Counted from the first letter of the stretch, positions 789 to 25,629 are shown. The stretch is DNA of 32,000 nucleotides from Candidatus Paracaedimonas acanthamoebae (GCA_000743035.1 CP008938.1:1-32000); one strand, 5' to 3'. The notes: generated by a model not told the origin, from the letters alone. Numbers and translations: made by a program.

Positions 789-1667
789 TTATTTTTCTGT
801 TTTCCTGAGTCTTTTTGGCTGACCTAATGCGAGGTAATTTTCTTTAGAGACAACTTTCTTCCCTGTTTCTAACTCTAACTTCTTCCGAGCATCTCCTGCT
901 ATCTTCCCACCTAATCTTGCAGTATGCTTATTCTCTTCAAAACCTTGAGGGTTTCGACTTTGTGTAATTTCTGTTGTTGAGGCTTCACCCAACATTGAAA
1001 AAATTAACTCTAAATCACTCATATGATCCCGCAAATTCTCGCGCTTTAAACCTTTATATTTTTTATGATCACTCGGCACCATCCCAAATGTTGCATAAGC
1101 AATCTCAGCGGTGAGGATTGAATACTCTCTATCTTCTTGTATCCCTCGTTTACTCCACTCTTCTGTCAGTTCCTCATGAATGGCAATACCGCGCATTCTT
1201 TTTTCAATCCACTCCTCAGGATACCCTTTAGCTTTATAAAGGGCACGCGTACGCTTTGTTGCTAACTCAGGATCTTCAATTTCTTGAACACGCTCATAAC
1301 CAACCTTAGCAAGCCAACGCTTAAAAGGTTCTGCTTTAGAAGAAGGAATTGATTGTATAATGCGAAAAAGTGTTTCTGCATTGGCACAATCTGTTGCATA
1401 TAACTTTCCATCCAAGGAAGGTAATTTCAGTTGTCCGATTTTTTCGGACAACTCAATAAATCCTTCTTCCTTTAAAAGCTTTCGTTTTAAATCATCCCAA
1501 TATTTGCGCGGGCGAGAGCTTTCTGTTAAGGCTTCAATTATATCAACAATTGAAAACCACCATTCATCCTTATGAAGAACGCGGCGGATCTTTTTACCCT
1601 TGAATACAATAATCTTATTCAGTTCCATTTTTACCTTATAAGCCTGTGAGCTTGCCTCATAATTCAT
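789..1667 (-). CDS. BRO-N domain / DNA-damage-inducible protein D (DinD)-like protein (292 aa)
   Basis: The N-terminus FKGKKIRRVLHKDEWWFSIVDIIEALT fits the Bro-N motif. The C-terminal part (KGLKRENLRDHMSDLEL...GGKIAGDARKKLELETGKKV) resembles the E. coli DinD C-terminus from memory. Confidence 0.7.
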   Translation of the reverse strand: MNYEASSQAYKVKMELNKIIVFKGKKIRRVLHKDEWWFSIVDIIEALTESSRPRKYWDDLKRKLLKEEGFIELSEKIGQLKLPSLDGKLYATDCANAETLFRIIQSIPSSKAEPFKRWLAKVGYERVQEIEDPELATKRTRALYKAKGYPEEWIEKRMRGIAIHEELTEEWSKRGIQEDREYSILTAEIAYATFGMVPSDHKKYKGLKRENLRDHMSDLELIFSMLGEASTTEITQSRNPQGFEENKHTARLGGKIAGDARKKLELETGKKVVSKENYLALGQPKRLRKTEK

Positions 1668-1683: not shown

Positions 1684-3876
1684 TTATGCTTTTATTTTCC
1701 TTTTTCCAGCATAGCAGATAGGACACCCTGATCCTTTTACTCTAGTGCGTACTATGGTTTCCCATATATGCCCTTTATTTTTACACTGCCAGAAAAACTT
1801 CTTAGAACTTCCAGGAAGAATATCAAAGGCTGTGATGGAGCCATTTAAGGTAGGATGTAACTGTTGAGCAATATCAGGATATAGAACAGCCAGGTTATTA
1901 TCTTTTCCAACCCTTCTATTGATGCATTCTGGGCACCCAGATCCCTTTCTTACTCTGCTATCTATTGTTGCTTCCCATTGATGCCCTTTATCGCATTTCC
2001 ATGTTACTTTCTTATTACTTCCAGGCATAACATCTTGAGGGGTAAGAGCCCCATTGGCTTCCTGATCCCATTCTTCAATATATTGGGGATACAAAACAGC
2101 GAGGTTATTATCTTTCCCAACCTTATGATTAGCACACTCAGGGCACTGTGATCCTTTTACTCTAGCGTATACTGCGGCTTTCCATATATGATTTTTTTCA
2201 CACTGCCAGAAAAACTTCTTAGAACTTCCAGGAAGAATATCAAAGGCCGTAATGGTGCCATTTAAGGTGGGATGTAACTGTTGAGCAATATGAGGAGCCA
2301 AAACAGCAAGGTTATTATCTTTTCCAACCTTGTGATTGGCACATTCTGGGCACTTATCTCCCTTTCTTACTCTGTTACATATTCTTGCTATCCATTTATG
2401 ACCTTTCTCGCATTTCCAAGCTACCTTTTTACTACTTTTAGACATAACATCTTGAGGGGTAAGATCCCCATTGGCTTCTTGATCCCATTCTTCAATATAA
2501 TGAGGGTATAGAACAGCAAGGCTGTTATCTTTTCCGACCTTTTGATTTGCACATTCAGGACATCCCTTTCCTTTAGATCTATGACGAATCAAAGCTTCCC
2601 ATTCATGGTCTTTATGGCATCTCCACCAGGCTTTTTTATCACTTCCAGGGACAACATCATAAGGCGTCAATTTATCATTCTTTGTAGGATGCCATTCATT
2701 AGCTAAATTAGGCTTTATGACAGCAAGATTATTGTCTTTCCCAACCTTTTTATTAGTACATTCAGGACAATGCTGTTGTTGAATTACTCTATTAAATATT
2801 GTTGCTTTCCATTTATGCCCTTTCTCGCATTTCCATGCTACTTTTTTACTACTTTTAGACATAACATCTTGAGGGGTGAGAGTCCCATTGGCTTCTTGAT
2901 CCCATTCATCACTATAGTGAGGATATTGAACAGCAAGATTGTTGTCTTTTCCAACCTTTTTATTTGCACATTCAGGGCACCCATACTTTAGGACTGCTCT
3001 TGCATATATAGAAGTTTTCGATTCATGTCCTTTTTCACACTGCCACACTGCTATTCTTCTGCTGTAAGGAGAGATGAGCTCAATTTTAAAAGCTCCATTT
3101 TTTGTTGGATGAAATTGCTTAAGAACCTCATCTGGAATTTTGGTAATTCTTTGATTTCTTCTAACTAATTCTTTTACTTTTGTTCTTTGTCGATTGAGAG
3201 GGAATATTTTATTACATTTTGGACAACCTTGACCATGACTTACTCTGCTACCTATTCTTGCTTTCCACTTATGACCTTTTTGGCATTTCCAAGCTACCTT
3301 TTTACTACTTTTAGACATAACATCTTGAGGGGTAAGATCCCCATTGGCTTCTTGATCCCATTCTTTACTATAGTGAGGGTAGAGAACAGCAAGGCTGTTA
3401 TCTTTTCCAACCTTTCTATTTGCACATTCAGGACATCCATGACCATATGTTCTTGTTCGAACCTTTGTTTTCCATTCATGGTTTTTTTCGCAAACCCAGA
3501 CTATAAACTTGTTACTGAAGGGAGTTAATTCATCCGCTGTAATGATTCCGTTCTTGGTTGGATGTAATTGAGCTGCAATATCAGGACGAAGTGTAGAAAG
3601 GTTATATGTTTCCGTTGCGCGCCCGGGAGAATGGCACATAGGGCATTTTTCATAATACGCACGAGCTTCTATGGTTTCATACCAGAAGTGACCTTTGTCA
3701 CATTTCCACTTTCCCATAATCTGCTTATTTTTATAGGGATCCTCAGGAAATGGATGATCATTTTCAACAGGATCCCATTGAAGTTTAATAGCTTCATATT
3801 GATCTTTTTTTTGCTTCTTAAAAAATCCCTCTGCTAGTCTTGTTAAAGCATTAATTTTAGCCTTCTTTGTTAGCAC
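1684..3876 (-). CDS. Zinc-ribbon array protein, 730 aa, 10 units of W-x-C-x-K-G-H-x-W...C-P-x-C (resembles the DUF4379-type treble-clef zinc-ribbon family); GTG start
   Basis: Ten repeats of about 66 aa (LAVxxPxxxxEWxxxxNGxLTPxDVxxxSxKKVxWKCxKGHxW...GCPECxNxKVGKDNN) were counted in the translation. There is no signal peptide. The C-terminus is basic (AGKRKIKA). The N-terminal region is shared with the 382-aa and 587-aa paralogues. Confidence 0.85.
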   Translation of the reverse strand: MLTKKAKINALTRLAEGFFKKQKKDQYEAIKLQWDPVENDHPFPEDPYKNKQIMGKWKCDKGHFWYETIEARAYYEKCPMCHSPGRATETYNLSTLRPDIAAQLHPTKNGIITADELTPFSNKFIVWVCEKNHEWKTKVRTRTYGHGCPECANRKVGKDNSLAVLYPHYSKEWDQEANGDLTPQDVMSKSSKKVAWKCQKGHKWKARIGSRVSHGQGCPKCNKIFPLNRQRTKVKELVRRNQRITKIPDEVLKQFHPTKNGAFKIELISPYSRRIAVWQCEKGHESKTSIYARAVLKYGCPECANKKVGKDNNLAVQYPHYSDEWDQEANGTLTPQDVMSKSSKKVAWKCEKGHKWKATIFNRVIQQQHCPECTNKKVGKDNNLAVIKPNLANEWHPTKNDKLTPYDVVPGSDKKAWWRCHKDHEWEALIRHRSKGKGCPECANQKVGKDNSLAVLYPHYIEEWDQEANGDLTPQDVMSKSSKKVAWKCEKGHKWIARICNRVRKGDKCPECANHKVGKDNNLAVLAPHIAQQLHPTLNGTITAFDILPGSSKKFFWQCEKNHIWKAAVYARVKGSQCPECANHKVGKDNNLAVLYPQYIEEWDQEANGALTPQDVMPGSNKKVTWKCDKGHQWEATIDSRVRKGSGCPECINRRVGKDNNLAVLYPDIAQQLHPTLNGSITAFDILPGSSKKFFWQCKNKGHIWETIVRTRVKGSGCPICYAGKRKIKA

Positions 3877-3932: not shown

Positions 3933-6900
3933 TTATGGCTTAAACTTCGGCGTAAAATACATAGAATGACTATCATCACGGGTATTTAAGTCTGGCTCCT
4001 CATAAGTAGCTGACGGATGATTATCATTATCATAAGGCTTTAAGTTCGGCACTGCATACCTGGTATCCTCAACATTATCGTTATGATGCTCAGCATAGGG
4101 TACTCCAACACTATCATCGCTAGAGTTTAGATCAGTATCACTATCTTCATATTCCTTTTGTAGGTCTTTATAGAGTGATGGGAAATCTTCTCCATAGTGG
4201 GATGGTGAAGGGAGCTTGTCCACATACTCTGAAGGAACCTCTTTTTTATAATCTTGTTGTGAGGGAAGCTTATCCTCATAAACATAAGAAGAAGAGCTGG
4301 AAGAGGCAACATTTATGTTAATTGCTCTATTAGTATGGGTTTCTTTTTCTGAAAGGGTTTTCATAAAATCTACAAAGAGCTCTTTAGGAGAAGACTTTGG
4401 CTTCAATTTGAGAAGTTCTTCTTGAGCTTTGAGTGTTGTGAATCTCTTCCTTGGTTTGGATTCAAGCAATCCTTTGATGACAGGAAAAATCGTTAAGTTT
4501 TTAAAATTCTTTTCCATCTTCTCGTAAGCGTCCTCAAGATGCTCTTCAAAATAATCTGAGTCACGTACGTTCATCATTTCTATAACGCCCTTCTCAAGGC
4601 CAAGAGGATATTCATTATTGGTAATCTCAAGCAGAGTAATCCCTGCTGCAAAGGCATCCGCGGCTTTTCCAGAGAAAAGTGTAGCCGTTTCTGTCGCTTC
4701 AAATTCATGCCCCCTACTAGCCATTGCAGAGCGGCAATAGGCCATACGATCAGGGGAGAAATAGGCAAAATCACCAAGCCCGCCTTTCATTTTGTCTTTT
4801 TGTAAGGCACACCCAAAGTCACTGACATATACAGTACCGTCAGTATGCACAAGGACATTGGTTGGTTTGACATCAAGGTGAGAGATGCCATCATCATGCA
4901 TGTTTTTAAGGCCTGTCAAAAGAGAAAGGGCAAAATGTGTTAACAGCTGATCTTTAAGCTTATTATTGGGCAGAAGCGCAAGCTTATCTTGGAAAGTCCA
5001 TCCATTGCCCAAAGCCGCTAAGGGGGTAACTTGCAATAAGAGTTCTTGCTGTGTCATATCTTGGCCACGGATGGTAGTTGACCCAAAGGTAGCATTCAAA
5101 AGCTGTTTTATGTCTCTTCTATTATCAGGCGTTGGTTTGAAATGTAAGTATTCTAATAAAGGTAAAACGCCTTCTTTTTGACCTAAGCTTTCTTGTAGTT
5201 TTCCTTCACGACGAGAAGCTTTTACATTTTCTGTTCCAACAACAACTTTCATCGCATCGTATTGTCTTGTTCCTCTTAATCTAGCAGGGAAGACACGCCC
5301 AAAATTGCCGGCTCCTAAAGTAACTTTTTTCTCATCTTCGTCCTCTTCAAATTCAATGTTAAGGCCGGCGAGAACTTTAAGTTCTTTTGCTTCACGCCTG
5401 TCTACGTCAGGAAGAAGCACATATTCATGACCATGCATGGCCCCTTTGATAATAATCCTTCCAGCCTCGACCCCTTCTCCTTTGGCTGTGAAAGCATCAG
5501 CAGCTACAGCGGGAGTGGCTGGGGGAAGTTCCCCCAACTCTACATCATCATTGTCGAAAGCTTTCTTCTGATTGTTATGGCGATATTTAAGACCAAGAAC
5601 AACGGCCAAGGTCGTACCACCTGCAAGTAACACAGTTCCGCCAACAGCTCCTCCAACTGCAGCTCCTATAACTGTAGCATCGTCAGAAGATGAAGGAGAA
5701 GAGCCACCTGGGATTGGTGAAGGCGTTGGGTTTATCGAACGACAATAAGCATTATAATTGGGATTTGAAGCAGACACTAAATTTTGTGAAAGAGACACAA
5801 TAAAACCATCAACGGGGCTTGAAGGGAAAAAAAGCTCTGCAACTTTATAAACTTGACCCTCTAATAAAGAACCTTGTTGACTACTAAAAGGTTGCTGAAG
5901 GGTAGTTTTACTATGAGTAGGGGTTGTTAACGTAGGATTCCATGCATAAGAAGCACAAGAGCTTGAGGTTTGTTGTGCTGATAAAGCTTGATATTCACAA
6001 TCTGTGACATTGGACCCATCAACCACTCTTTTGTATAAAATTGAAGAACCATTTAATTGATCAATAAAGAAATACGTTAATCGGGTATAAACAGAGTTAT
6101 AGCTTGAGAGAATATTTTTACAAGATAAAGGCTCCATGCTCAGTTGATTAAAACAAGTTAACAAATCATTGTGCAGGCTTCCCCCCAAAGTTATTAAAGT
6201 TTGCTTTATTGTTTGATCCCCTCCGCAACTAGTAGAGCCAATTGTTCCATTATAAGAAGAGATGAGCTGATCATAAGTATTTCCTGTTTCTTCAATGGCG
6301 CGCTGTGGTCTATTGGTACTGATAACTTGAGGTGTGAAGTAGGCAGGTCTTATTTGATTTTGTGTGCTATTCCTTGTTAAAGCGCGTTGCCAAAGGAGAG
6401 TAGGGTTACTTCCTAAAGGCCTTGCTATTGTCGTGGTGAGACCAAGGGTTGTATTATACATTGCTGTAAATACCCAATATTCATGATTAGGAAGCGTATC
6501 AATATAAAAGGGATTCAGGTTTCTTGGGGTCGAAGTATCTGCATAAAGAGTAGCGTTATTAAGCCCTTGATACTCGTAAGCACGAAAATAAGAATAAGTA
6601 GAATTGAATGGTGTATAAGTTATGCTATAATAAGGTGTGTCTGGCGTAAAATTAAGTCTTGTTGCATTTCCATCAGGAATACTGCCAACTACATAAGTTG
6701 AAAGCTGAGCATAATAACCTGTATTATTAAGTCCATTAATTATATTAAGGATCTCAGGCAATGCTGCAGCTTTATTGGGGTTAAAAAGGGTGTTATTGGT
6801 TGCTTGTTGGTAATAAGGATTACTAGCAAGAGAGATTAACTCAGGGCTGTTAAGAGCTGTCCCGAGCAAGAAATGGGAGCTTGCACAGTCTTTATATGCA

Positions 6901-7838
6901 TCACCTGGACCACTACAAGCAGTAATCAAAGAACCTGGACTTAAAGCAGCAGCTGCTGTAATAGCTCCATGGGATAAGATCAAAGTTAATAATCCTATTC
7001 CTTCTGCATAGCGACCCAGAGAATACTTTCTTGTAGAATGATTTTTAAACTTAATGCCTAAAGAATTTAAGGTCGCATATGAATCTTCTGTAAGGCTTCC
7101 CCCATTCATATTTTTATATAAGCGGACAAGAGAACTTTTTACATATTTAAGGTTATCTCTTTTGTGCTCTAGTTCGCTTACTTCTTCTAAGCACTGAGAT
7201 AAAAGAGCGCCTTCTTGAAGAATATCGAGTCTAAAAGCATGAGGGTCAAATTCTTCATCAAAATCTTGAGCAAATTGAAATTCAACTCGTAAGCTTTCAT
7301 TGTGAATTTGCTTTGCAAGACTGCTTTTTTGCAACACTCGATAGAAGTTAGCAAGTTCTTGCTTAAAATGAATTAAGTTACTCTCATTAACATTATTTTG
7401 GTTCATAAGGTGATAAAACTTAGCAACTAGACGACCACTTTTTTCAAAACTTTGATGAAAATTATTTGAAGAACTGTCTTCTGCCAATTCATAACTAAGA
7501 TAATCAAAAAATTCATTTAAATGTTGATAATTAAGAGTAATAAGGTGGTCCGTTATATGGGCCCAATCCTTTTCCCAAGAAGAGACCTGGTTTTCTTTTC
7601 TTGAGGTTTGAGAAGACGAACTTCCTTTTAAAAGGAAAGTTAATTTTTCTTTTATATCTTTAAATAAAGATCCAACCCATGAAGAAGCCTGAGGGTTTAT
7701 TCCTTCAATTTCAGGAGATAAAACTTTTTTAGTATATGAGGGAAGTGGGTCTGTAACAATATCTGAGCTTAATGTTGGATGTGAGTGTGATATACTAATA
7801 ATTGAAAAAATAACCAGCAGTATTCTTCTTAAAATCAT
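3933..7838 (-). CDS. Type-I-topology membrane protein with a C-terminal Hanks-type Ser/Thr kinase domain (1301 aa)
   Basis: Signal peptide MILRRILLVIFSIISISHS. Single TM helix VIGAAVGGAVGGTVLLAGGTTLAVVLGL (nt 5589-5672) followed by KYRHNNQKK. Kinase motifs are LGAGNFGRV, DAMKVV, SHLDVKPTNVLV, SDFGCA and FSPDRM...DAFAAGITLLEI. The roughly 125-aa acidic tail contains 12 Tyr. Confidence 0.9.
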   Translation of the reverse strand: MILRRILLVIFSIISISHSHPTLSSDIVTDPLPSYTKKVLSPEIEGINPQASSWVGSLFKDIKEKLTFLLKGSSSSQTSRKENQVSSWEKDWAHITDHLITLNYQHLNEFFDYLSYELAEDSSSNNFHQSFEKSGRLVAKFYHLMNQNNVNESNLIHFKQELANFYRVLQKSSLAKQIHNESLRVEFQFAQDFDEEFDPHAFRLDILQEGALLSQCLEEVSELEHKRDNLKYVKSSLVRLYKNMNGGSLTEDSYATLNSLGIKFKNHSTRKYSLGRYAEGIGLLTLILSHGAITAAAALSPGSLITACSGPGDAYKDCASSHFLLGTALNSPELISLASNPYYQQATNNTLFNPNKAAALPEILNIINGLNNTGYYAQLSTYVVGSIPDGNATRLNFTPDTPYYSITYTPFNSTYSYFRAYEYQGLNNATLYADTSTPRNLNPFYIDTLPNHEYWVFTAMYNTTLGLTTTIARPLGSNPTLLWQRALTRNSTQNQIRPAYFTPQVISTNRPQRAIEETGNTYDQLISSYNGTIGSTSCGGDQTIKQTLITLGGSLHNDLLTCFNQLSMEPLSCKNILSSYNSVYTRLTYFFIDQLNGSSILYKRVVDGSNVTDCEYQALSAQQTSSSCASYAWNPTLTTPTHSKTTLQQPFSSQQGSLLEGQVYKVAELFFPSSPVDGFIVSLSQNLVSASNPNYNAYCRSINPTPSPIPGGSSPSSSDDATVIGAAVGGAVGGTVLLAGGTTLAVVLGLKYRHNNQKKAFDNDDVELGELPPATPAVAADAFTAKGEGVEAGRIIIKGAMHGHEYVLLPDVDRREAKELKVLAGLNIEFEEDEDEKKVTLGAGNFGRVFPARLRGTRQYDAMKVVVGTENVKASRREGKLQESLGQKEGVLPLLEYLHFKPTPDNRRDIKQLLNATFGSTTIRGQDMTQQELLLQVTPLAALGNGWTFQDKLALLPNNKLKDQLLTHFALSLLTGLKNMHDDGISHLDVKPTNVLVHTDGTVYVSDFGCALQKDKMKGGLGDFAYFSPDRMAYCRSAMASRGHEFEATETATLFSGKAADAFAAGITLLEITNNEYPLGLEKGVIEMMNVRDSDYFEEHLEDAYEKMEKNFKNLTIFPVIKGLLESKPRKRFTTLKAQEELLKLKPKSSPKELFVDFMKTLSEKETHTNRAININVASSSSSSYVYEDKLPSQQDYKKEVPSEYVDKLPSPSHYGEDFPSLYKDLQKEYEDSDTDLNSSDDSVGVPYAEHHNDNVEDTRYAVPNLKPYDNDNHPSATYEEPDLNTRDDSHSMYFTPKFKP

Positions 7839-8002: not shown

Positions 8003-8701
8003 TTAATTAAAAAAAGAGTTAAATAACTTAAATTTAAGATGAACATTAAATTCATAAATACTTGGCTTAATGCTGCGGGTATTAAGAATTGTCTGTCCTT
8101 GTCTATCCAAAAGAGGGTATGATGAATTCTTATAACGTGTATGAGAAAGTTCTGCCCCTAAAGAAAAACTTTTAAAGGGTACGCTCATCCCAATGCCCAT
8201 CATCATACCGTTTAATTTCTTCTTCAACTCACTTCGCCCCATAAGCGGTAAACCATCAGTAACTATATGCCAATGACCTTTCGTTAAGCCACCTTTCACA
8301 AAGTAAAGAGTTTCGTTATAAAACGTACCCAAACGTACATCAGCACCATAGTTGTGTTTTAGCTGGAGAGAATTTTTTAATGGAATTCTTGGATTGTTCA
8401 CTGAACTATTTATTTTTCCTTTAAGATTTGAAAAAAGGGTGCTTCCTTGTAACGCTATATAATATTTCTTATTAAAAGTTTGACTCAGTTCAACAAAAGG
8501 TCCACCATTTGCTCCATGCATTGCAACATGAGAATGGTCGTTAATATTTTGGTATCCAGGCACAGCATCAGTTAAATTGCGTTTAATATGAATTCTGCCT
8601 AAAGCATACCCCCCTTTTATACCTAGCCATAAACTCGTTTCAGAAGCATAAGCTATATTTGTGAAAATGCTTATTGAACTTACTATAATAAATTTATTCA
8701 T
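8003..8701 (-). CDS. Small outer-membrane beta-barrel protein (OMP_b-brl / Omp25-31-like, 232 aa)
   Basis: Signal peptide MNKFIIVSSISIFTNIAYA. Alternating hydrophobic beta-strand pattern with aromatic-rich terminal strands (YEFNVHLKFKLF). Lies 23 nt downstream of the secreted repeat protein gene. Confidence 0.7.
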   Translation of the reverse strand: MNKFIIVSSISIFTNIAYASETSLWLGIKGGYALGRIHIKRNLTDAVPGYQNINDHSHVAMHGANGGPFVELSQTFNKKYYIALQGSTLFSNLKGKINSSVNNPRIPLKNSLQLKHNYGADVRLGTFYNETLYFVKGGLTKGHWHIVTDGLPLMGRSELKKKLNGMMMGIGMSVPFKSFSLGAELSHTRYKNSSYPLLDRQGQTILNTRSIKPSIYEFNVHLKFKLFNSFFN

Positions 8702-8724: not shown

Positions 8725-10629
8725 TTAGATTTGACCAGTGGATATTATGCAGAGAAGGTCTCCAAGAGTCATATTGCCTTCAGTGACGGGAACAGAGCTT
8801 GTTCCTGTGAGTGAAAAACCTGGAGGGTTTCCTTTAAGAACTTTAAGAGCTCTATATATCATTGTTAATAATGCGCGAGCTTCTCCATGTGGATCGCCAG
8901 GTTGATTTGAACTTACGCCAGCTACAATTGAGGGATCATAATCTTGTGCCTTATTCCATGCTGTTTGATAACTTGAAGAATTTCCTAAATCAGTATTCAT
9001 AACAGTTGTAATTTTAGCATTAGCTCCATCAAGATCATTCTTTAATACTTGAACCTTCCGTACGATAGGATCAACCCCTGCTGGAAGAAAAGGATTTAAC
9101 TCTGCAAGGCGATCAGCTAGAATGGGATTTGCAGGAAATGGCTGCAATGTACCGACTGACGTTTTAGCTTGAGCAATGACAAGCTCATCGGCATCAAAAT
9201 CATCCTTTAATGCTTGAACCTTTTGCACAATGGGAGCAGGGCCGGGGACCAGAGTATTTACTTCATCCAAACGCTCGGAGAGACTAGGATCTGCGGGAGA
9301 AGGCAAAAGAGTACCGAGAGAATTTTTAGAATCTTGAATCTGAGTATTAAGGGCATTAACGCCTGTAAGGATAACAGCATTACCTACAAGAGCTGAAATG
9401 GTATGCAAACCAGTGGTAAGGTCAGCTGAAGATTGCCCATCTGCAGTTTGCCAAGCATCATTTATTGTATTCTCAGCTTCATCAAGATCATTTTTTACAT
9501 TATCGTATTCATTTTTCAATATTTGAACCTTCCGTACGATAGGATCACCTCCTGCTGGAAGAAAAGGATTTAACTCTGCAAGGCGATCAGCCAAAATGGG
9601 ATCTGCGGGAATTGGCTGCAATGTACCAACCATTGTTTTAGCTTGAGCAATGGCAAGTTCATCGGCATCAAAATCATTCTTTAATGCTTGAACCTTTCGC
9701 ACAATGGGAGCAGCCCCAGGCACTAAAACATTTATTTCATTTAGACGCTCTAAAAGGCTTGGATTGGCAGGCGGTGGTAACAATGTTCCTATGGAGTTCT
9801 TGGCGTTAAGGTTTTCTGTTGTTAATAGTTGAAAATTAATTTGTAGCAAGTCAATACGAGAGTATATATCCCCATTACCGCCTAATTTGGTTTGTAAAGC
9901 TAAAATAGCAGTGCCTAGGTTTCTAGGATTGCTATTTGTATAAAGAATATTAACATATTGATTTGTACGTGTTACAAGATCAAACGCATTGTTCCCAGCA
10001 ATTGCATTTTGTAGGTTTGACAGTGCCGCTAAAATGCTAGTTGTTATAGGCCGATTATCAATTAAATTTTTAAATTGAACTGCTGAGTTCATTAAAGCAG
10101 TATTTCCCCCCATAATTGTCCTTAAATCTATAAGGTCAATTAACATACTTGCACCTTGATCTGCTCTTAGTTTGATAAAGTCTCTTAAGGCCAAGATGTT
10201 ATCTTTTAAACTAAGATTTAAAGGGCCTCCAATCATAGCTTGATTGTGAGTTAAAGCAGTGTTGAGATTATTATTAGAACCTTGATCAAAGCTTGTTGCA
10301 AAATATGCTATTCTCGCATAAAGGCTCCCTGCCCTAGGTACTAATAAAAAAATATTATTTAAAGAAGAATTTATATCAGCAGTCGTGGGACGATTATCTA
10401 ATTGATCTTTAATATATTGAGCTTTAGGAGCATAACCTTCTACTGGGATATCCCCCATTATACGTGCTATTTTCTTAAGTTCGATAAGGGAAGTATCGTC
10501 TGGGTCACAACTTCTTTTGCCAGAAAATAGGTCGGCAATCCCTTGCCCTGTTTCTTCACCTTTAAAAAAGGTAGCAATTGCTGATTGATGAATAAAGAAT
10601 AATAAAGAAACAAGTAATAATTGACGCAA
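8725..10629 (-). CDS. Secreted repeat protein of unknown function (634 aa)
   Basis: Signal peptide MRQLLLVSLLFFIHQSAIA. Contains four copies of a roughly 48-54 aa unit GTLxPxPAxPxLxxRLxExNxxxPxxxxPIVxKVQxLKxxxD. I recognise no enzymatic motif. Confidence 0.8.
   Translation of the reverse strand: MRQLLLVSLLFFIHQSAIATFFKGEETGQGIADLFSGKRSCDPDDTSLIELKKIARIMGDIPVEGYAPKAQYIKDQLDNRPTTADINSSLNNIFLLVPRAGSLYARIAYFATSFDQGSNNNLNTALTHNQAMIGGPLNLSLKDNILALRDFIKLRADQGASMLIDLIDLRTIMGGNTALMNSAVQFKNLIDNRPITTSILAALSNLQNAIAGNNAFDLVTRTNQYVNILYTNSNPRNLGTAILALQTKLGGNGDIYSRIDLLQINFQLLTTENLNAKNSIGTLLPPPANPSLLERLNEINVLVPGAAPIVRKVQALKNDFDADELAIAQAKTMVGTLQPIPADPILADRLAELNPFLPAGGDPIVRKVQILKNEYDNVKNDLDEAENTINDAWQTADGQSSADLTTGLHTISALVGNAVILTGVNALNTQIQDSKNSLGTLLPSPADPSLSERLDEVNTLVPGPAPIVQKVQALKDDFDADELVIAQAKTSVGTLQPFPANPILADRLAELNPFLPAGVDPIVRKVQVLKNDLDGANAKITTVMNTDLGNSSSYQTAWNKAQDYDPSIVAGVSSNQPGDPHGEARALLTMIYRALKVLKGNPPGFSLTGTSSVPVTEGNMTLGDLLCIISTGQI
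9025..9789 (-). repeat. Intragenic direct repeat: two copies of about 285 bp with a 474-bp period, each made of two sub-units
   Basis: The stretch starting TTGAACCTTCCGTACGATAGGATCA near 9047 recurs near 9521, and roughly 85-90 percent identity by eye continues for about 285 bp. This corresponds to a 158-aa period in the protein. Confidence 0.8.
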
Positions 10630-10934: not shown

Positions 10935-12083
10935 TTAGATTTTCCCTGATCTTTTCAGTAATATACTTGCCTTATAGCATTTCATGCATCCTACCCCTCT
11001 TAATGCTCTAGGCGAAATTCTAGCTTCCCATTCATGCCCTTTATTGCATTTCCACCATACTTTTTTCTGAGTTCCAATAATCACATCAGAAGGCGTTAAA
11101 TTGCTATTTTTTATAGGATGCCACTCTTTAGCTAACTCAGGCTTCATGACAGCAAGGTTATTGTCTTCTCCTACCTTTTGATTGGTACATTCAGGACATC
11201 CCCTTCCTTTAGCTCTATTGCTAATAAAAGCTTGCCATTCATGACCATTTTCACATATCCACCAAGCTCTTTTACTTGTATTTAAAGAAACATTTTCTAG
11301 ATTAAATAAACCATTCTTGATTGGATGCCACTCTTTATAAAGATATTGAGGGAAGGTGTTATTGCCTTTTTTCTGTGGGCCAGTTTTACCGACATTTACT
11401 AAATTTCTTATTCGAGGAAAACATGTGGGACATCTTGCCCCTCTATTTTTATTTGAAACACTTGTGCGCCATTCATGGCCTTTATCGCATTTCCAAGCTA
11501 CTTTCTTATTACTTCCAGGTGTTACCTCGTTTGGTGTTAGGCTACCATTTCCTTCTTGATCCCATTCTGCAATTAAATTCGGCCTTAAAACTGCCAGGTT
11601 ATTATCTTTCCCGGCCTTTTGATTTGAACATTCAGGACACCCATTACCTCTTGTTCTTACATATACTTGTGCTTCCCACTCATGTCCTTTTTCACATATC
11701 CACCAAACTTTTTTATTACTTCCAGGACTTATCTCATCAGAAGTTAAGCCTTTATTTTTGGTTCGGTGCCACTCTTTATCTAGATCTGGCCTCAAATAAA
11801 AAAGATTATATATTTCCGTTGCGCATCGTGGAGAGTAACACATATGACAAATCTGATAGTGGGCTCTATTTTCTATCGTTTCATACCAAAAATGACCTTT
11901 TTCACACTTCCATTTACCAACAATATCTTTATTCTCAGCAGGGTTCTCAGGAAATGGCTGTGAATTTTCAATTGGGTCCCATTGATTTTTAATCAAATGA
12001 TATCGATCACCGTCTTGGTGATGTGTTTCTTCTATAGTTTTTGAAAAAATCTTCTTCAGTTTATTTTTTAACACAGCTTCCAT
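10935..12083 (-). CDS. Zinc-ribbon array protein, 382 aa, 5 units (paralogue)
   Basis: Same N-terminal module and ribbon units as the 730-aa and 587-aa proteins. The first ribbon is degenerate (CHMCY instead of CPMCH). The C-terminus is basic (LLKRSGKI). Confidence 0.85.
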   Translation of the reverse strand: MEAVLKNKLKKIFSKTIEETHHQDGDRYHLIKNQWDPIENSQPFPENPAENKDIVGKWKCEKGHFWYETIENRAHYQICHMCYSPRCATEIYNLFYLRPDLDKEWHRTKNKGLTSDEISPGSNKKVWWICEKGHEWEAQVYVRTRGNGCPECSNQKAGKDNNLAVLRPNLIAEWDQEGNGSLTPNEVTPGSNKKVAWKCDKGHEWRTSVSNKNRGARCPTCFPRIRNLVNVGKTGPQKKGNNTFPQYLYKEWHPIKNGLFNLENVSLNTSKRAWWICENGHEWQAFISNRAKGRGCPECTNQKVGEDNNLAVMKPELAKEWHPIKNSNLTPSDVIIGTQKKVWWKCNKGHEWEARISPRALRGVGCMKCYKASILLKRSGKI

Positions 12084-12319: not shown

Positions 12320-14083
12320 TTATAGAAGATTATTGCCTTTGCCTGCTTTCCTATTAGAACATTGAGGACAACCTTTACTTCTCGTCCTTACAGATACTTT
12401 TTCTTCCCACACATGGTCTTTATGGCATTTCCACCATACTCTCTTATGACTCCCAAAAACCACATCTAAAGCCGTTAACTCACCATTCTTTATAGGATGC
12501 CATTCATCAGCTAGCTCAGGCTTTATTACAGCAAGGTTATTATCTTTGCCGGTTTTTTTATTAGAACATTCAGGACATCCCCTTCCTTTAGATCTACTAT
12601 AAATCAAAGCTTCCCATTCATGCCCTTTATTGCATTTCCACCATACTTTCTTATGACTTCCAGGACCAACCTCAAAAGGCGTTAACTCATTATTCTTTGT
12701 AGGATGCCATTCATTAACTAACTCAGGCTTTATTACAGCAAGGTTATTGTCTTTTCCAACCTTTTGATTTACACATTCAGGACACCTTTGTCCTATAGAT
12801 CTATTATAAATCAAAGCTTCCCACTCATGGTCTTTATGGCATTTCCACCACACTTTCTGACCACTCCCAGGAACAACTTCAAAAGGCGTTAACTCACCAT
12901 TCTTTGTAGGATGCCATTCATCAGCTAAATTAGGCTTCATGACAGCAAGGTTATTGTCTTTTCCGGCCTTTTGATTGACACATTCAGGACACCCTTTTCC
13001 TGTAGATCTATTACTAATCAAAGTTTCCCACTCATGGTCTTTATGGCATTTCCACCACACTTTCTGACTACTCCCAGGAACAACTTCAAAAGGCGTTAAC
13101 TCACCATTCTTTGTAGGATGCCATTCATCAGCTAAATCAGGTTTCATGACAGCAAGGTTATTATCTATGCCGACCTTATGATTGGTACACTCAGGACATC
13201 CATGTCCTTTAGATCTAGTACTAATCAAAGCTTTCCACTCATGGCCTTTTTCACATCTCCACCAACCTCTTTTATTCGAAAATAAAGAAATATTCTCAAG
13301 ATTAAATAAACCGTTCTTGATGGGATGCCACTCCTTATACAGATAATGAGGGAGTGTATTATAACCTTTTTTCTTTGGAACAATTTTACCGACATTTGAT
13401 GTATTTTTTGTTCGAGGAAAACATGTGGGACATCTTGATCCTCTATTCTTATGTGAAACACTTGTACGCCATTTATGTCCTTTTTTGCACTTCCAAGAAA
13501 CTTTCCTATTGCTGCCAATAGTGACATCATTTGGCGTTAATTTTCCATTTTCTTCTGGATCCCAGTCTACCAATAAATCAGGTCTTAAAACTGCTAGGTT
13601 ATTATCTTTCCCGACCTTTTGATTTACACACTCAGGACAACCATTACCTCTTGTCCTTGGAGATACTTGTGCTTCCCACTCATGTCCTTTTGCACATTTC
13701 CACCATACTTTTTTATTACTTCCAGGTGTTACTTCATCAGAAGTTAATCCTCTATTCTTGGTCGGGTGCCACTCTTTATCTAAGTCTGGCCGTAAATAAA
13801 AAAGATTATATACTTCTGTGGCTCGTCTTGGAGAATGGCACATAGGGCAAACTTGGTAATGGGCTCTGTTCTCTATCGTTTCATACCAAAAGTGACCTTT
13901 TTCGCACTTCCATTTACCAACAATATCTTTATTTTTAGCAGGGTTCTCAGGAAATGGCTGTGAATTTTCAATTGGGTCCCATTGATTTCTAATTGAATCG
14001 TATATGTCAACTATTTGATGGGTTGAATTATCTATTGTTTTTGAAAAAATCTTCTTTAGTTTATTTTTTAACAAAGTTTTCAT
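12320..14083 (-). CDS. Zinc-ribbon array protein, 587 aa, 8 intact units (paralogue, 3'-truncated)
   Basis: The first roughly 880 bp are colinear with the 382-aa gene at an offset of exactly 2000 nt (for example, identical 40-mers at 11941-11980 and 13941-13980). It ends GKGNNLL inside the inter-unit linker. Confidence 0.85.
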   Translation of the reverse strand: MKTLLKNKLKKIFSKTIDNSTHQIVDIYDSIRNQWDPIENSQPFPENPAKNKDIVGKWKCEKGHFWYETIENRAHYQVCPMCHSPRRATEVYNLFYLRPDLDKEWHPTKNRGLTSDEVTPGSNKKVWWKCAKGHEWEAQVSPRTRGNGCPECVNQKVGKDNNLAVLRPDLLVDWDPEENGKLTPNDVTIGSNRKVSWKCKKGHKWRTSVSHKNRGSRCPTCFPRTKNTSNVGKIVPKKKGYNTLPHYLYKEWHPIKNGLFNLENISLFSNKRGWWRCEKGHEWKALISTRSKGHGCPECTNHKVGIDNNLAVMKPDLADEWHPTKNGELTPFEVVPGSSQKVWWKCHKDHEWETLISNRSTGKGCPECVNQKAGKDNNLAVMKPNLADEWHPTKNGELTPFEVVPGSGQKVWWKCHKDHEWEALIYNRSIGQRCPECVNQKVGKDNNLAVIKPELVNEWHPTKNNELTPFEVGPGSHKKVWWKCNKGHEWEALIYSRSKGRGCPECSNKKTGKDNNLAVIKPELADEWHPIKNGELTALDVVFGSHKRVWWKCHKDHVWEEKVSVRTRSKGCPQCSNRKAGKGNNLL

Positions 14084-17217: not shown

Positions 17218-18477
17218 ATGAGCTATTTGTCCAAGGGACGGTTGTGTCCTAAAAAAACCTCTGTAATATTGTGCTATCGGGCACCTGAAACCAATCATAG
17301 TTCCCCTTTAGTAGGAATGCTACAAGGGCAACTAAGTTACTGGTTTTCTAAAAAACCCCAAGGTTTTTATAAATTTTTAGAGCCCTGTAAGCATCCTTTA
17401 TATAAACAAGGCGATAGTTGGTCTGAAGAATTAGGGTTATCACGTCGCGTCTTTAATTCAACTTTTGATGCCATAGGTGTCCGCTATAAAACCAAAACAG
17501 AATTTATGAAGGCTAAAGATAAGTTTCTAGGAAAACCCTATGCTAGCTATCATGACAGGAAAAAAAACCAAACATTCTTTGTCCGTAATCCTAAATTATT
17601 TCAAGAGGTTAAAAAATCTTCAGAAAGCTATATATCTTCACTAAAACATTCAGAACCTGAAAGAGAGATTTCTAAGAACTCAAAGCCTTTAAATCAAAAG
17701 ATAAAAGCTGAAGAGAAGAGGGGACTTTCTACATCAAATTGTCGTTCCAAGAACGACACAAACAGTCGTTCCTATGCTGGCAATTCTGGGGGGACTATAG
17801 GGGGGAAGAATAATACTTCAGAAAATACTTCAACTTCTTCTCTCTCATCCAAAATTGATGAGAAGAATAAAATTGCAAATGATATGAAAAATATTTGGAT
17901 TGAGGAAATCGGGGAATTGGATGTTAATCACCTAACATCAACCCTCATTTCAAGGTTAAGCATATCTTACGGGACAGTTTTTAAAAGTTCTCTTGAAAAT
18001 TGGAGATCTTATTGTCGAAAAATAGCCTCAAGTAAATTCTTAATGGGAGAGAAGAGGGGGACAAACTTCAAAGCTAAGCTATCATGGGCAATCCAGTATG
18101 AAACCTATGAACGAATTCAAGCAGGTGATTTTACGTTGGGAAATCGAAAGATTGAAGAGAAACCAATAAATATGTCACCAGAGGAAGAAAAGAACGCTCG
18201 TGAAGAATTAAAACAGGAACTTCTTAATTCTTCTAAAGATCAAACTTGGATTGAGGCGTGTTTAAGATTGTGTGAAAAAATAGGGTACAAAACGGTTAAA
18301 AATTGGCTGTATCCTCTCAATATAACCACCATAAACTCTAAAGAAGTTGAGCTACAAGCGCCAAGTAAATTCATTAGGGATTGGGTTGAGAAGAATCTAG
18401 GAAAAGAGCTCAAGCATACTTTCCAAGAACTTTTAGGATCTTCTCTTGAATATTGCAGAATTACGTCGATAGCTTAA
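17218..18477 (+). CDS. Replication-initiator-like protein with a DnaA-domain-I-like C-terminus (419 aa)
   Basis: The C-terminal WIEACLRLCEKIGYKTVKNWLYPLNITTINSKEVELQAPSKFIRDWVEKNLGKEL follows the DnaA_N pattern (W..C...L......F..WL.PL......L.L..PN.F..DWV). The central WRSYCRKIASSKFLMGE...FKAKLSWAI motif is shared with the paralogue at 22770. An AGGAGG SD is at 17203-17208. Confidence 0.6.
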   Translation: MSYLSKGRLCPKKTSVILCYRAPETNHSSPLVGMLQGQLSYWFSKKPQGFYKFLEPCKHPLYKQGDSWSEELGLSRRVFNSTFDAIGVRYKTKTEFMKAKDKFLGKPYASYHDRKKNQTFFVRNPKLFQEVKKSSESYISSLKHSEPEREISKNSKPLNQKIKAEEKRGLSTSNCRSKNDTNSRSYAGNSGGTIGGKNNTSENTSTSSLSSKIDEKNKIANDMKNIWIEEIGELDVNHLTSTLISRLSISYGTVFKSSLENWRSYCRKIASSKFLMGEKRGTNFKAKLSWAIQYETYERIQAGDFTLGNRKIEEKPINMSPEEEKNAREELKQELLNSSKDQTWIEACLRLCEKIGYKTVKNWLYPLNITTINSKEVELQAPSKFIRDWVEKNLGKELKHTFQELLGSSLEYCRITSIA

Positions 18478-22769: not shown

Positions 22770-24230
22770 ATGCACTACCCTCATGCCACTTCTTCATTTC
22801 TTAAGCTTCGCCCTATTATGAAGTCTGTCATCAGAGAAGATTTAGTAGCTCTTACTAAAGACTATAGAGCTGCTGTTGTATTGCATCAGCTTATTTACTG
22901 GACAAAGCGTGTTTATGACTTTGATAAATTTTTACAAGAAGAGCATGACCGAAATCCTGAGTGTAATGTAGCCTTTAGGCATGGTTGGATTATTAAAACA
23001 GCTCAAGATCTTTCCGATGAAACATTGCTTGGTTTTTCTCGTCAAACGATGCGCATAATTTTAAAAAAGCTTATCGACCTTGAGGTTATTGAAGAGGCAT
23101 ATCTTGATGATAATAAATGGGACAAAACTACCAAATATAGGCTGAATCTAGTTAAACTACAGGAAAGATTATTTGCACTTGGCTATCCTTTAAGTGATTT
23201 CACAATGGTAGAAAATTCGCATAACTCCCGAATGTTAAGTTCACAACATTCGGAAGTAGATTTTCGACCTCCGAGTGTTAAAAATTCAGCGAACAATATA
23301 GATAAGAGATTACACACAGAGAGTATAAAAGATATCTCTCCTTCTCCTACCTCTTCCTCATTCAATCAAAAAGAAGAAGAAAAAGAAAACATTGCAAACG
23401 AGATGAAAGAGATTTGGATGGAAGAGATTGGATCTCTTGAGATTAGCCAGTTAACACCTTCTCTAATCCTGAGTCTTCATCAAGCCTTTCAGAGCCTTTT
23501 TGGTGCTTCTCTTGTCACTTGGAGATCTTATTGTCGGAAGATTGCCTCAAGTAAGTTCCTCATGGGTGAGGGGGGTAATAAGCATTTTCAAAAACCTTGG
23601 CTTACTTGGGCCATTAAGGAAGAGACTTTTCACAAAATTGAATCAGGTCAGTTTACTTTAGGCGATCGCATTGCCTTTCTTCCAGAAGCAAAAAATGAAG
23701 AAAATAAGCCAGAAAAAGAAGAAGAATTACGTCAAAAACTTCTCTCTTCTTCACATCATCCTTTGTGGAAAAAAGTTTGTCTACTTCTAACTGATAAGCT
23801 TGAAGTCTCCCTTATTCGTCAATGGCTTTTAGAAATGGATATTGTCTCTCTTACCCAAGAAGAGGTTTGCATTAAGTCTCCTACTTTGTTTGCAAGAGAC
23901 TGGGTCAGCAAGAACTTAAAGGCTCAGATCTTATCGGCTTTAGAAAAAGCTTTAGGCCATCCAGTTAATCATCTTAAAATTGAAGTTCCCCAAAACTCTG
24001 GCACCCTCCCTATGTCAGAGTTGGTAGAAGGAGGGTCCCCCAATAGCTCTCCTTCTACTTCCTTATCCAACCCAAGTTTTGATGCTCCTTCAGCATCAAA
24101 TGCAGAGGAACATAGTGTTCCTCGAAGCTCCCCTTTAACTTATCCCAGCAGTTTAAATGCTGCTGGGTCTTTTTCAAGGGAGCTGCATTTAAAGTACAAT
24201 GATCACAAGTTAAATGGAGTAAGCGCATGA
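22770..24230 (+). CDS. Replication-initiator-like protein, paralogue of 17218-18477 (486 aa; an alternative start lies at 22818)
   Basis: Shares NIANEMKEIWMEEIG...WRSYCRKIASSKFLMGE...TWAI...G.FTLG.R and the DnaA_N-like C-terminal module (WKKVCLLLTDKL...IRQWLLEMDIVSLTQEEVCIKSPTLFARDWVSKNL) with the first copy. The N-terminus looks like a winged helix. Confidence 0.6.
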   Translation: MHYPHATSSFLKLRPIMKSVIREDLVALTKDYRAAVVLHQLIYWTKRVYDFDKFLQEEHDRNPECNVAFRHGWIIKTAQDLSDETLLGFSRQTMRIILKKLIDLEVIEEAYLDDNKWDKTTKYRLNLVKLQERLFALGYPLSDFTMVENSHNSRMLSSQHSEVDFRPPSVKNSANNIDKRLHTESIKDISPSPTSSSFNQKEEEKENIANEMKEIWMEEIGSLEISQLTPSLILSLHQAFQSLFGASLVTWRSYCRKIASSKFLMGEGGNKHFQKPWLTWAIKEETFHKIESGQFTLGDRIAFLPEAKNEENKPEKEEELRQKLLSSSHHPLWKKVCLLLTDKLEVSLIRQWLLEMDIVSLTQEEVCIKSPTLFARDWVSKNLKAQILSALEKALGHPVNHLKIEVPQNSGTLPMSELVEGGSPNSSPSTSLSNPSFDAPSASNAEEHSVPRSSPLTYPSSLNAAGSFSRELHLKYNDHKLNGVSA

Positions 24231-24563: not shown

Positions 24564-25277
24564 GTGAGCCTAACAATGCAAGATAAAGCTATACCCAATT
24601 TTGGGAAAATTCTATCTCTTTCTTTTACTCAAAAATTAAGAGAACAATTTAAAGGATCACATGACTTAATCATTTATCATGATTGGGTTAATGATTTTCT
24701 GACAGCAAAGCTTACTAAGGAGCAATTTAATAGATTTTTGTCTCAACAAGCTTATTGTTATAATTATCTAACGAGTAGAATTATCAGTTTAACGCTTAAA
24801 GATCCAACGAAGCATTATGATGAACTTCGTAAAATAGCTAATTTTTTGTTGAATGAGTCCTTTGGTGACTTAGGACTTTTAGATAACAGTTATGTCAGAA
24901 CTCTTAAACTCTCCATTTATACCAAAGAGTATATTGAACATATTGAAGATATTTGGTTAAAGCACGCTTATATTAACAAACTGATCACCTTATTTCCGAT
25001 TTTATGGATACATTCTGATTTAGATAAGCGCCTCACGAGTGACGTTCATCTTTTTGTCACGAATAAAGAATGGCTCAATAGAATCACATTTTCCCATTCA
25101 CAAAAAATATTAGAAGTTTTATGTCGTCTCATTGATGATGAGGCTCAGTTCATCAGTTCTCAAGAACATCTGGAATTAGAAAACATTTTCTCAAGACTCT
25201 ATCAATTTGAGCTTTTGATCCGCAATGAATCTTATCAAACAAATACCAATCAATTTCAACAATCTAAACAATCCTAA
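24564..25277 (+). CDS. Hypothetical helical protein with TenA/PqqC (heme-oxygenase-like) resemblance (237 aa from GTG; an alternative ATG lies at 24576)
   Basis: HDWVNDFLTAKLTKEQFNRFLSQQAYCYNYL and LFPILWIHSDLDKRL parallel TenA HPFVQGIGDGTL..DRFKYYVLQDSYYL and LLPCYWLYYEVGEKL (recalled from memory, not searched). Confidence 0.4.
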   Translation: MSLTMQDKAIPNFGKILSLSFTQKLREQFKGSHDLIIYHDWVNDFLTAKLTKEQFNRFLSQQAYCYNYLTSRIISLTLKDPTKHYDELRKIANFLLNESFGDLGLLDNSYVRTLKLSIYTKEYIEHIEDIWLKHAYINKLITLFPILWIHSDLDKRLTSDVHLFVTNKEWLNRITFSHSQKILEVLCRLIDDEAQFISSQEHLELENIFSRLYQFELLIRNESYQTNTNQFQQSKQS

Positions 25278-25287
25278 GGAGACTCTT

Positions 25288-25629
25288 ATGAAGCACATCC
25301 AAGTTTTTAATGATCTTAAAAAAAATGATTGCAAAGGATCTTTTTTCAAAAAATGCAAGAAATATGCACTTCATTTTTCTATTAGTACTTACCTTATGCT
25401 GGAGAGCCACCCCGCATTTGCATTTGCTCAAATTTTCACAGGAAAATTGAATGAACTTCGAAATGGTCTCATTCTGATCGGTAAAGCATGTGTCGGTGTT
25501 GCGCTAGCTGCGGCAGTTATTAAATTTTTATCCGGTAGAGGGGATTGGAAGTGGATTGGTTCTATTTGTGGTGTTGGATGTGCTCTTATAGGATTTAATA
25601 TTTTAATTCAGTTTTTTGGAGGATTATGA
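25288..25629 (+). CDS. virB2: T4SS pilin, VirB2/TrbC-like (113 aa)
   Basis: A long leader ends AFAFA, followed by two hydrophobic helices (LILIGKACVGVALAAAVIKF; IGSICGVGCALIGFNILIQFF). A TAAGGAG SD lies 6 nt before the ATG at 25288. It sits immediately upstream of virB3. Confidence 0.7.
   Translation: MKHIQVFNDLKKNDCKGSFFKKCKKYALHFSISTYLMLESHPAFAFAQIFTGKLNELRNGLILIGKACVGVALAAAVIKFLSGRGDWKWIGSICGVGCALIGFNILIQFFGGL

Follow-up and report, generated by a model that had tools for sequence, protein, structure and literature searches.

The window analysed here, a stretch of 32,000 nucleotides from Candidatus Paracaedimonas acanthamoebae (GCA_000743035.1 CP008938.1:1-32000), carries on its minus strand a gene (3933..7838) for a protein of 1301 residues in which a signal peptide and two orphan domains are joined, through a transmembrane (TM) helix, to a C-terminal Hanks-type kinase. 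The reading that we favour, and hold tentatively, is that of a functional receptor Ser/Thr kinase of the bacterial inner membrane with a domain order opposite to that of the PknB type. Nearly all known bacterial Hanks kinases are either 'kinase-in-front' proteins or soluble effectors, and those of the PknB type consist of an N-terminal cytoplasmic kinase, a TM helix and a C-terminal extracytoplasmic sensor. The opposite layout of outer domain, TM helix and C-terminal kinase had been recognised in a preliminary description of this stretch and is borne out by the present analysis. The family to which the protein belongs is uncharacterised, the searchable literature holding no account of it or of its architecture (a review of the Holosporales does not contain the word 'kinase'), and it would be new as a bacterial receptor Ser/Thr kinase with a reversed, eukaryote-like layout and orphan sensor modules. 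The parts of the gene, from the N-terminus of its product onwards, are as follows.

3933..7838, minus strand: kinase open reading frame (ORF), 1301 residues and a stop codon in a single open frame
7782..7838, minus strand: Sec-type signal peptide, residues 1-19, read from the sequence as MILRR, ILLVIFSIISI and SHS, with H following
7002..7781, minus strand: helical N-domain, residues 20-279; 8-9 helices in the AlphaFold2 (AF2) model at pLDDT 60-88; conserved in the family
6936..7001, minus strand: internal hydrophobic segment, residues 280-301 (GIGLLTLILSHGAITAAAALSP); basic N-flank, h-region, A-x-A, then R-P
5682..6935, minus strand: orphan alpha+beta outer domain, residues 302-719; 8 Cys, 11 N-x-S/T sequons, Ser/Pro-rich stalk at its end
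5589..5681, minus strand: Gly/Ala-rich TM helix, residues 720-750 (ATVIGAAVGGAVGGTVLLAGGTTLAVVLGL), with GxxxG-type motifs
5562..5588, minus strand: polybasic stop-transfer flank KYRHNNQKK, residues 751-759; homologues have equivalent K/R clusters after the TM helix
5331..5561, minus strand: juxtamembrane region and N-terminal kinase extension, residues 760-836; small beta/alpha subdomain, pLDDT 85-93
4422..5330, minus strand: Hanks-type Ser/Thr kinase, residues 837-1139; Pfam PF00069 Pkinase, 73.8 bits against a cut-off of 31.7
3936..4421, minus strand: C-terminal tail, residues 1140-1301; acidic, Tyr-rich, low-complexity

Domain anatomy of the protein

The kinase is the sole domain that Pfam detects in the 1301-residue protein, and the complete Hanks core named in the preliminary description is present in full, with GAGNFGRV at residue 842, AMK at 862 (the Lys being residue 864), HLDVKPTN at 987, DFG at 1007 and SPD at 1028. 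The G-loop, the Lys, the alphaC Glu (of REG), HxDxKxxN, DFG and the Arg of subdomain XI are invariant in 11 diverse members. The Arg of the HRD motif is Leu throughout the family (HLD), hence the kinase is of the non-RD class, and its activation loop contains neither Ser nor Thr. The AF2 model of the kinase (pLDDT 89.2, pTM 0.88) has the bilobal kinase fold with the N-terminal extension packed before the N-lobe, and the motif of this extension (AF.AKG.G...AR..V.G...Y.L.F..D..EA.EI...GL.I.F) is conserved. The best Foldseek matches of the model are PAK3, TNIK and CaMKK2 (probability 1.0, TM-scores ~0.7), with NIK, CDK2 and MST3 also found. By profile, the nearest solved kinases are CaMKK2, CDPK1, CIPK, LKB1 and Chk2 (64-78 bits), such that eukaryotic STE/CaMKK/CDPK kinases score 64-78 bits, whereas bacterial PASTA kinases score 55-61 bits. 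The KPxN catalytic loop predicts Ser/Thr specificity, and dual specificity may be considered, as the P+1 region (GDFAYFSPDR) resembles that of MAP2K and Wee1.

Comparison with known kinases sets the protein apart from two groups at once. Kinases of the PknB/PrkC (PASTA) and PknD types share with it the Hanks fold and, on the favoured topology, the use of one membrane anchor and of a sensor outside the cytoplasm; however, the order is reversed here (kinase at residues 837-1139, after the TM helix at 720-750), Pfam finds no PASTA domain, and the NCBIfam model PknB_PASTA_kin (NF033483), for which the cut-off is 450 bits, attains 39.8. The family protein furthermore adds the non-RD HLD loop, the helical N-domain, the internal hydrophobic segment and the long tail that is acidic and Tyr-rich. 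Among eukaryotic proteins, type I receptor kinases (plant receptor-like kinases (RLKs), animal receptor tyrosine kinases, TGF-beta receptors, and the receptor-type kinases and cyclases of Acanthamoeba) have a similar overall outline, which runs from a signal peptide through an outer domain with Cys and sequons, a GxxxG-rich TM helix, a basic stop-transfer sequence and a juxtamembrane region to the kinase and a Tyr-containing tail. Non-RD character is likewise common to this kinase and many immune receptor kinases, including the plant non-RD pattern-recognition receptors. The differences are that the gene resides on a bacterial plasmid, that its outer domain has no eukaryotic homologue and that a second hydrophobic segment follows a 260-residue N-domain. 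No affinity to the TK, TKL or RLK groups is apparent, with Pfam PK_Tyr_Ser-Thr at 36 bits versus 74 for Pkinase, a KPxN loop of the Ser/Thr type, and the nearest solved kinases being instead CaMKK2, LKB1, STE20, CDPK, CIPK and Chk2. Although the protein truly belongs to the Hanks superfamily, it fails the defining features of both the PASTA/PknB and the eukaryotic TK/TKL/RLK kinases.

Effector kinases such as the Legionella LegK family, Coxiella CstK and Chlamydia Pkn5 are secreted, eukaryote-like Ser/Thr kinases encoded on mobile DNA by protist- or host-associated intracellular bacteria, and apart from secretion the present kinase is similar in this respect, but they are not known to possess a Sec signal peptide, which is untypical of effectors of this kind, a large outer domain or a TM-anchored type I layout. 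Beyond the kinase fold no sequence relationship to them is seen here. That the kinase belongs to a system for anti-phage or plasmid defence (Mad6, PD-T4-6 or Stk2-like) is barely credible. Over the kinase domain the PADLOC mad6 model gives 74.7 bits and the PD-T4-6 models 20-43 bits, NCBIfam MAD6 gives 42 bits, a neighbouring Bro-N protein matches the candidate defence family PDC-S13, and the gene lies on a plasmid; however, these scores are at the level of the generic Pfam Pkinase match, the NCBIfam cut-off is 460, and known defence kinases are not proteins with a signal peptide, an outer domain and a TM helix. The ORFs of the window also include no MADS partner genes, and this assignment was rejected on the generic kinase-level scores and the missing partners.

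The tail is compositionally distinct, the last 125 residues containing 12 Tyr (9.6%, versus 4.8% protein-wide) and 27 Asp and Glu versus 11 Lys and Arg, and being rich in S/T/N/Q/P/G. Several tail motifs recur in homologues (YG.[ED].PSLY..LQ..Y, Y..P.L.P[FY][ND] and Y[EQ][ED]P, with PKFKP at the C-terminus), and in our own reading they resemble SH2 ligands.

In the N-terminal half, the signal peptide already suspected from its cleavable look has distinct n, h and c regions, which are kept in the 12 full-length homologues of alignment A1 with an N-terminus present; P0020 is N-truncated as called. The AF2 model of the outer part has a mean pLDDT of 71, with residues 302-700 forming an alpha+beta structure at pLDDT 80-90. 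A Foldseek search with the outer-domain model against PDB and BFVD (viral models) returned noise only (TM-scores <=0.1), and Pfam at E <= 1 gave nothing for the N-domain, the outer domain, the outer domain of the L002 relative, P0014 or P0020. The N-domain and the outer domain are both orphans, so that two domains with models that we regard as confident, and with no known fold match, are added to the repertoire.

Residues 1-720 contain 9 Cys, slightly fewer than the approximately 10 first counted by eye, and 14 N-x-S/T sequons, 11 of which fall within residues 348-610 (10 of these being N-x-T), in line with the earlier count of at least 11. Within the outer domain (residues 302-719) the Cys are kept or lost in sets, with 8, 6 or 4 per member, and only 1-3 occur in the cytoplasmic half, a pattern that fits disulphide bonding in an oxidising compartment. 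The enrichment in sequons proposed earlier does not exceed composition in this protein alone (11 observed versus 7.9 +/- 2.4 in shuffles, p = 0.14). Family-wide, N-x-T is favoured over N-x-S (79:25 cells, 37:15 alignment columns, p = 0.0012), six control motifs exhibit no Thr preference, and a conserved sequon occupies seven alignment columns versus one for the reversed motif. Other outer-domain types carried on the same kinase have no sequon excess, and the N-x-T signal may therefore be structural and not a mark of glycosylation. Sequon enrichment as evidence of glycosylation is thereby weakened, and it is the N-x-T over N-x-S bias alone that survives.

Membrane topology and proposed signalling

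The preliminary description placed one TM helix at 5589-5672, which corresponds to residues 723-750. The helix is confirmed, although the hydrophobic stretch runs over residues 720-750 (5589-5681), and it is not the only one, as a second conserved segment at residues 280-301 is equally hydrophobic (Kyte-Doolittle 1.86 for both, with similar crude Hessa sums). A Gly-rich TM helix occupies the equivalent position in all relatives, the chlamydial ones included, and the stop-transfer sequence KYRHNNQKK lies at residues 751-759 as described. The segment at residues 280-301 resembles an internal signal peptide and is kept in every homologue, including the kinase-less P0014, P0015 and P0020. It is modelled by AF2 as an unpacked helix (pLDDT 32-36), and has basic residues on its N-side and none on its C-side. 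A lipobox following this segment was judged by eye and rejected, the Cys lying ~10 residues past the h-region and the ED-AC of homologues being a misfit.

Three features, namely the conserved Sec signal peptide, the polybasic sequence behind the TM helix and the Cys-paired N-terminal part, argue together for a periplasmic location of the first 700 residues and a cytoplasmic kinase and tail. The positive-inside rule is satisfied at the TM helix, with KYRHNNQKK on its C-side and acidic or Ser-rich sequence on its N-side, and the internal segment, which has no basic residues on its C-side and would thus be a poor stop-transfer sequence, can pass into the periplasm. The conserved signal peptide and the TM helix with its polybasic flank predict that the protein is retained in the inner membrane of the bacterium itself. 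The alternative of a periplasmic kinase, in which the internal segment would be the stop-transfer sequence, was rejected, as it breaks the positive-inside rule at both helices and leaves the Cys-paired domain in the cytoplasm.

The anatomy, the invariance of the catalytic residues, purifying selection and the confinement of the family to intracellular bacteria and mobile DNA are results of the analysis; the topology, the activation by dimerisation and the substrates proposed next are inferred. The Sec signal peptide would send the N-terminal ~700 residues (the helical domain, the internal helix and a disulphide-stabilised sensor domain) to the periplasm, the Gly-rich helix at residues 720-750 with its polybasic flank would anchor the protein, and the kinase and disordered tail would remain in the bacterial cytoplasm. 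A ligand or contact at the periplasmic domain may then alter self-association through the GxxxG-rich TM helix, and such a change could switch a non-RD kinase that would need no activation-loop phosphorylation, whereupon the kinase would phosphorylate cytoplasmic targets or its own tail. The arrangement would also match the classical bacterial sensor layout, in which sensor histidine kinases and chemoreceptors have a periplasmic sensor between TM1 and TM2 and a cytoplasmic output after TM2, if the internal segment were TM1, a role that is likely in the chlamydial relatives, which have no signal peptide. These systems differ in that the output here is a Hanks kinase and not HisKA/HATPase or MCP, and in that the Holosporales members additionally possess a signal peptide and the 260-residue N-domain.

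Several observations weigh against the inner-membrane receptor. The hydrophobicity of the TM helix is marginal on the crude Hessa scale, and residues 280-301 are as hydrophobic as the TM helix, so that a simple type I topology fails if they are membrane-integrated. The acidic, Tyr-rich tail with its SH2-ligand-like motifs looks eukaryote-facing, and the many paralogues per chlamydial metagenome-assembled genome (MAG), 13 and 8 in two cases, represent an expansion more typical of host-interaction families than of signalling within the bacterium. Among the ORFs of at least 120 residues in the window there is no PP2C phosphatase or FHA partner. If the protein does act in the bacterium, reduced-genome symbionts keep an elaborate receptor signalling system that may sense the host.

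Family, origin and host-directed alternatives

An exhaustive phmmer search with residues 1-760 against 1.84 billion representatives retrieved 14 proteins, all of one family, of which 8 span 1270-1351 residues with the complete architecture; the named matches are Alphaproteobacteria MAGs. Four members (P0014, P0015, P0019 and P0020) keep the signal peptide, the N-domain, the internal segment and the outer domain and have the TM helix and kinase replaced, which suggests that the N-terminal module also works without a kinase. The replacement in these kinase-less variants is a conserved, unrelated C-terminal domain of ~100 residues. When one genome per GTDB species was scanned, full-length relatives turned up in two 'Caedibacter sp.' MAGs and in a single alphaproteobacterial MAG, and divergence among full-length members reaches 25-40% identity. 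The TM-extension-kinase module, joined to other outer domains, is present at 28-34% identity in a gammaproteobacterial MAG (L010) and, in numerous copies, in Chlamydiae MAGs, where K940_chlam_7 has 13 loci, MFD02923 has 8 and an Anoxychlamydiales MAG has one. A full-length word-indexed protein search had returned only the protein itself and one 78% homologue, its candidates being swamped by low-complexity words; the kinase and the outer domain were therefore searched separately, which recovered the relatives.

The chlamydial proteins have the Gly-rich TM helix and an R/K cluster ~100 residues ahead of the G-loop, and in place of an N-terminal signal peptide they have internal hydrophobic segments preceding the outer domain. 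In P0007 and P0022 the TM-kinase module is joined to LVIVD repeats. In Chlamydiae and other MAGs it likewise stands behind outer domains of the LVIVD (beta-propeller) type or of other kinds, a reuse that has a parallel in the beta-propeller sensor of M. tuberculosis PknD (PMC6213207), to which the LVIVD sensor of some chlamydial relatives is comparable. In P0004 on L001 the kinase module stands behind a short outer domain that bears Cys and sequons. On L002 (7748-11413) the open frame comprises 1221 residues, of which the gene caller's P0005 covers only 470, and begins with a signal-like N-terminus, from which it continues through an unrelated outer domain rich in N and a stalk of Ser/Thr repeats to the TM helix and the kinase. 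L001 (ENA ERZ26273096 ctg153892) is a tandem array of a 4.18-kb unit (GC ~32%) that encodes a family kinase (46% identity) with a short Cys/N-x-T outer domain, frameshifted in 2 of the 3 copies, together with a 267-residue secreted coiled-coil protein rich in N-x-T. The homologue of Caedibacter sp. 38-128 (L005:3638-7617) is split into overlapping ORFs of 552 and 780 residues with a DDE transposase adjoining, and is either a pseudogene or an assembly frameshift.

Neighbours of family members include an integrase, a transposase, UmuC and ParA, with SSB, replication proteins and VirB2/4/6/8/9 as further plasmid genes. Holosporales and Chlamydiae live in obligate association with eukaryotic hosts (PMC11909080), and members of the family are confined to intracellular bacteria of protists and to mobile DNA. 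Mobile DNA spreads among unrelated protist endosymbionts (Holosporales, Chlamydiae and a gammaproteobacterium) a kinase family of opposite domain order, with interchangeable outer domains, a Gly-zipper TM helix and a eukaryote-style tail.

The gene is real and under purifying selection. Against the L004 homologue, dN/dS is 0.13-0.35 for the outer domain, the TM/juxtamembrane region, the kinase and the tail, and 0.56 for the N-domain, the latter on few changes. The two halves of the gene diverge to very different extents: in the comparison of 3933-7838 with L004:1279-5220 (78% identical), dS is 0.05-0.24 for the N-terminal 720 residues and 1.1-1.8 from the TM helix onwards, with amino-acid identities of 94% up to the TM helix and 48-69% from there to the end, and the kinase half of L004 is closer to P0008 (81%). 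This contrast implies that the outer and cytoplasmic halves have recombined and that the gene is a mosaic. A further chimera is the metagenomic P0006, in which a DUF4379 N-terminus is fused to the C-lobe of a family kinase.

The preliminary description had considered acquisition of the gene from a eukaryotic host such as an amoeba. The eukaryotic features would then be leftovers of a recent transfer. The layout, like that of type I receptor kinases, is in agreement with such an origin, as is the large number of Acanthamoeba receptor proteins that span the membrane once and have a Ser/Thr kinase domain (PMC4053784), and the best solved-structure matches are all eukaryotic, albeit in a PDB heavily biased to eukaryotic kinases. 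For a recent transfer the remaining evidence is adverse. No eukaryotic relative of residues 1-760 exists among the 1.84 billion representatives, all 14 phmmer matches belonging to a single bacterial family, and every named relative is bacterial for the outer part and for the kinase alike. The kinase profile search gives E = 1e-66 within the family and E = 1e-16 or weaker outside it, where the best matches (stramenopile MAPKK, bacterial PASTA kinases and plant Wee1) share 20-30% identity and are in part bacterial. Within bacteria the family is deeply diversified, with full-length identities down to 25-40%. Comparison with neighbouring genes, which the preliminary description had pointed to as a check, yields a composition native to the plasmid, with a GC of 0.386 and a GC3 of 0.281 in ranges of 0.31-0.43 and 0.19-0.39, respectively. 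The missing eukaryotic relative, the plasmid-like composition and the generic similarity outside the family leave a recent acquisition from an amoeba unsupported, and we consider it very improbable.

In a neighbour-joining tree of kinases, which is crude, used for topology only and accompanied by bootstrap values computed on rooted clades and hence unreliable, the family forms one clade with Holosporales and Chlamydiae/gamma sub-clades, and the sampled eukaryotic kinases fall between this clade and the bacterial PASTA kinases. A kinase domain nested in a bacterial clade, with the same architecture widespread in free-living bacteria, had been named at the outset as evidence that would overturn the reading then proposed. 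The clade is indeed all-bacterial, but it comprises Caedibacter-like Holosporales, Chlamydiae and the gammaproteobacterial MAG (L010) and not free-living bacteria, and the reading is not overturned on this count. For the kinase domain by itself, an origin in eukaryotes far in the past is conceivable.

The protein may instead be a host-directed mimic of a receptor kinase that is exported by a type IV secretion system (T4SS), vesicles or another system and seated in a host membrane, which we regard as unlikely though worth weighing. The internal segment (N-in) and the TM helix (C-in) would then be two anchors, with the N-domain, the kinase and the Tyr-rich tail in the host cytosol and the Cys/N-x-T domain in the lumen. 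The charges flanking the two helices fit this N-in / loop-out / C-in arrangement, and the chlamydial relatives, with internal hydrophobic segments in place of a signal peptide, are consistent with it, whereas the conserved Sec signal peptide and TM helix predict inner-membrane retention. The distribution across phyla (only the obligately host-associated Holosporales and Chlamydiae, and one gammaproteobacterial MAG), the paralogue expansion, and the mobile-DNA contexts with module swapping also speak for a role in the host. So do the acidic Tyr-rich tail with its Y..P and Y[EQ][ED]P motifs and the kinase profile that scores eukaryotic STE/CaMKK/CDPK kinases slightly above bacterial PASTA kinases (64-78 versus 55-61 bits). 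The host encodes 22 Tyr kinases and 48 SH2 proteins (PMC4053784), which we count on the same side.

As regards export, a VirB-type T4SS is encoded on the same plasmid, but it may be merely conjugative, and neither a secretion signal nor an export route is evident. The bacterium resides in the host cytoplasm (PMC11909080), which is a further argument against the mimic. The specific preference for N-x-T and the conservation of sequons by position speak for it, whereas the sequon count of this protein stays within composition (p = 0.14) and no excess of sequons is seen in the other types of outer domain fused to the same kinase. To our knowledge, there is no route that takes a 420-residue loop of a bacterially made protein across a host membrane to the glycosylation machinery, and this counts against the mimic as well.

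The fullest form of this scenario, in which the family as a whole consists of receptor-kinase mimics exported from protist endosymbionts, N-glycosylated and installed in host endomembranes, appears quite improbable. Its parts share that single estimate: the helical N-domain and internal helix would be a membrane-insertion module, the N-x-T/Cys domain would be luminal and receive N-glycans from the host, and the cytosolic tail would be phosphorylated and recruit host SH2 proteins. Were it true, a bacterial protein would enter the host glycoprotein pathway and rewire amoebal phospho-signalling. A protein acting in the host would represent a new class of membrane-inserted effectors, and with either site of action the family offers a testable handle on symbiont-amoeba communication.

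Locus and plasmid context

Candidatus Paracaedimonas acanthamoebae is an Acanthamoeba symbiont that lives in the host cytoplasm and has a 1.7-Mb genome of 38% GC and five plasmids (PMC11909080). The product of the kinase ORF is 100% identical to the hypothetical protein IM40_09950 of this bacterium, annotated on a plasmid. A Shine-Dalgarno-like AGGGGAAG lies ~8 nt upstream of its ATG, promoter and terminator scans gave signals no better than shuffled sequence, and megablast of the kinase gene against the PLSDB plasmids returned zero matches. The gene content of the window is plasmid-like by Pfam and similar searches, with PIN, Bro-N, SSB, ParA, a nitroreductase and a LysR regulator, in addition to three DUF4379 zinc-ribbon repeat proteins, two DnaA_N-domain proteins and VirB2/4/6/8/9. 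The features outside the kinase gene are as follows.

789-1667, minus strand: Bro-N protein, PADLOC candidate defence family PDC-S13 (394 bits)
1684-3876, 10935-12083 and 12320-14083, minus strand: DUF4379 paralogues with 5-10 treble-clef zinc-ribbon repeats each
8003..8701, minus strand: upstream gene of 232 residues with a signal peptide and, by eye, the look of a small outer-membrane beta-barrel
8725-10629, minus strand: secreted protein of 634 residues with internal repeats of ~90 residues (LNE.N.LVPG.APIVRKVQALK.DFDADEL...)
17218-18477 and 22770-24230, plus strand: two paralogues with a C-terminal DnaA_N domain, probably plasmid replication initiators
25225-31889, plus strand: type IV secretion cluster VirB2, VirB4, VirB6, VirB8 and VirB9, running past the end of the window

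The 232-residue gene stands directly upstream of the kinase gene also in L004 (94% identity) and L006 (32% identity), and its signal-peptide protein may be an operon or functional partner of the kinase. Pfam and NCBIfam assign no family to either of the two genes upstream of the kinase (232 and 634 residues). The C-terminus of the 634-residue protein recurs upstream in L004. Two of the three large DUF4379 genes flank the kinase operon, and relatives of the DnaA_N proteins adjoin ParA on the contig L002, where a family kinase and a nitroreductase are encoded as well.

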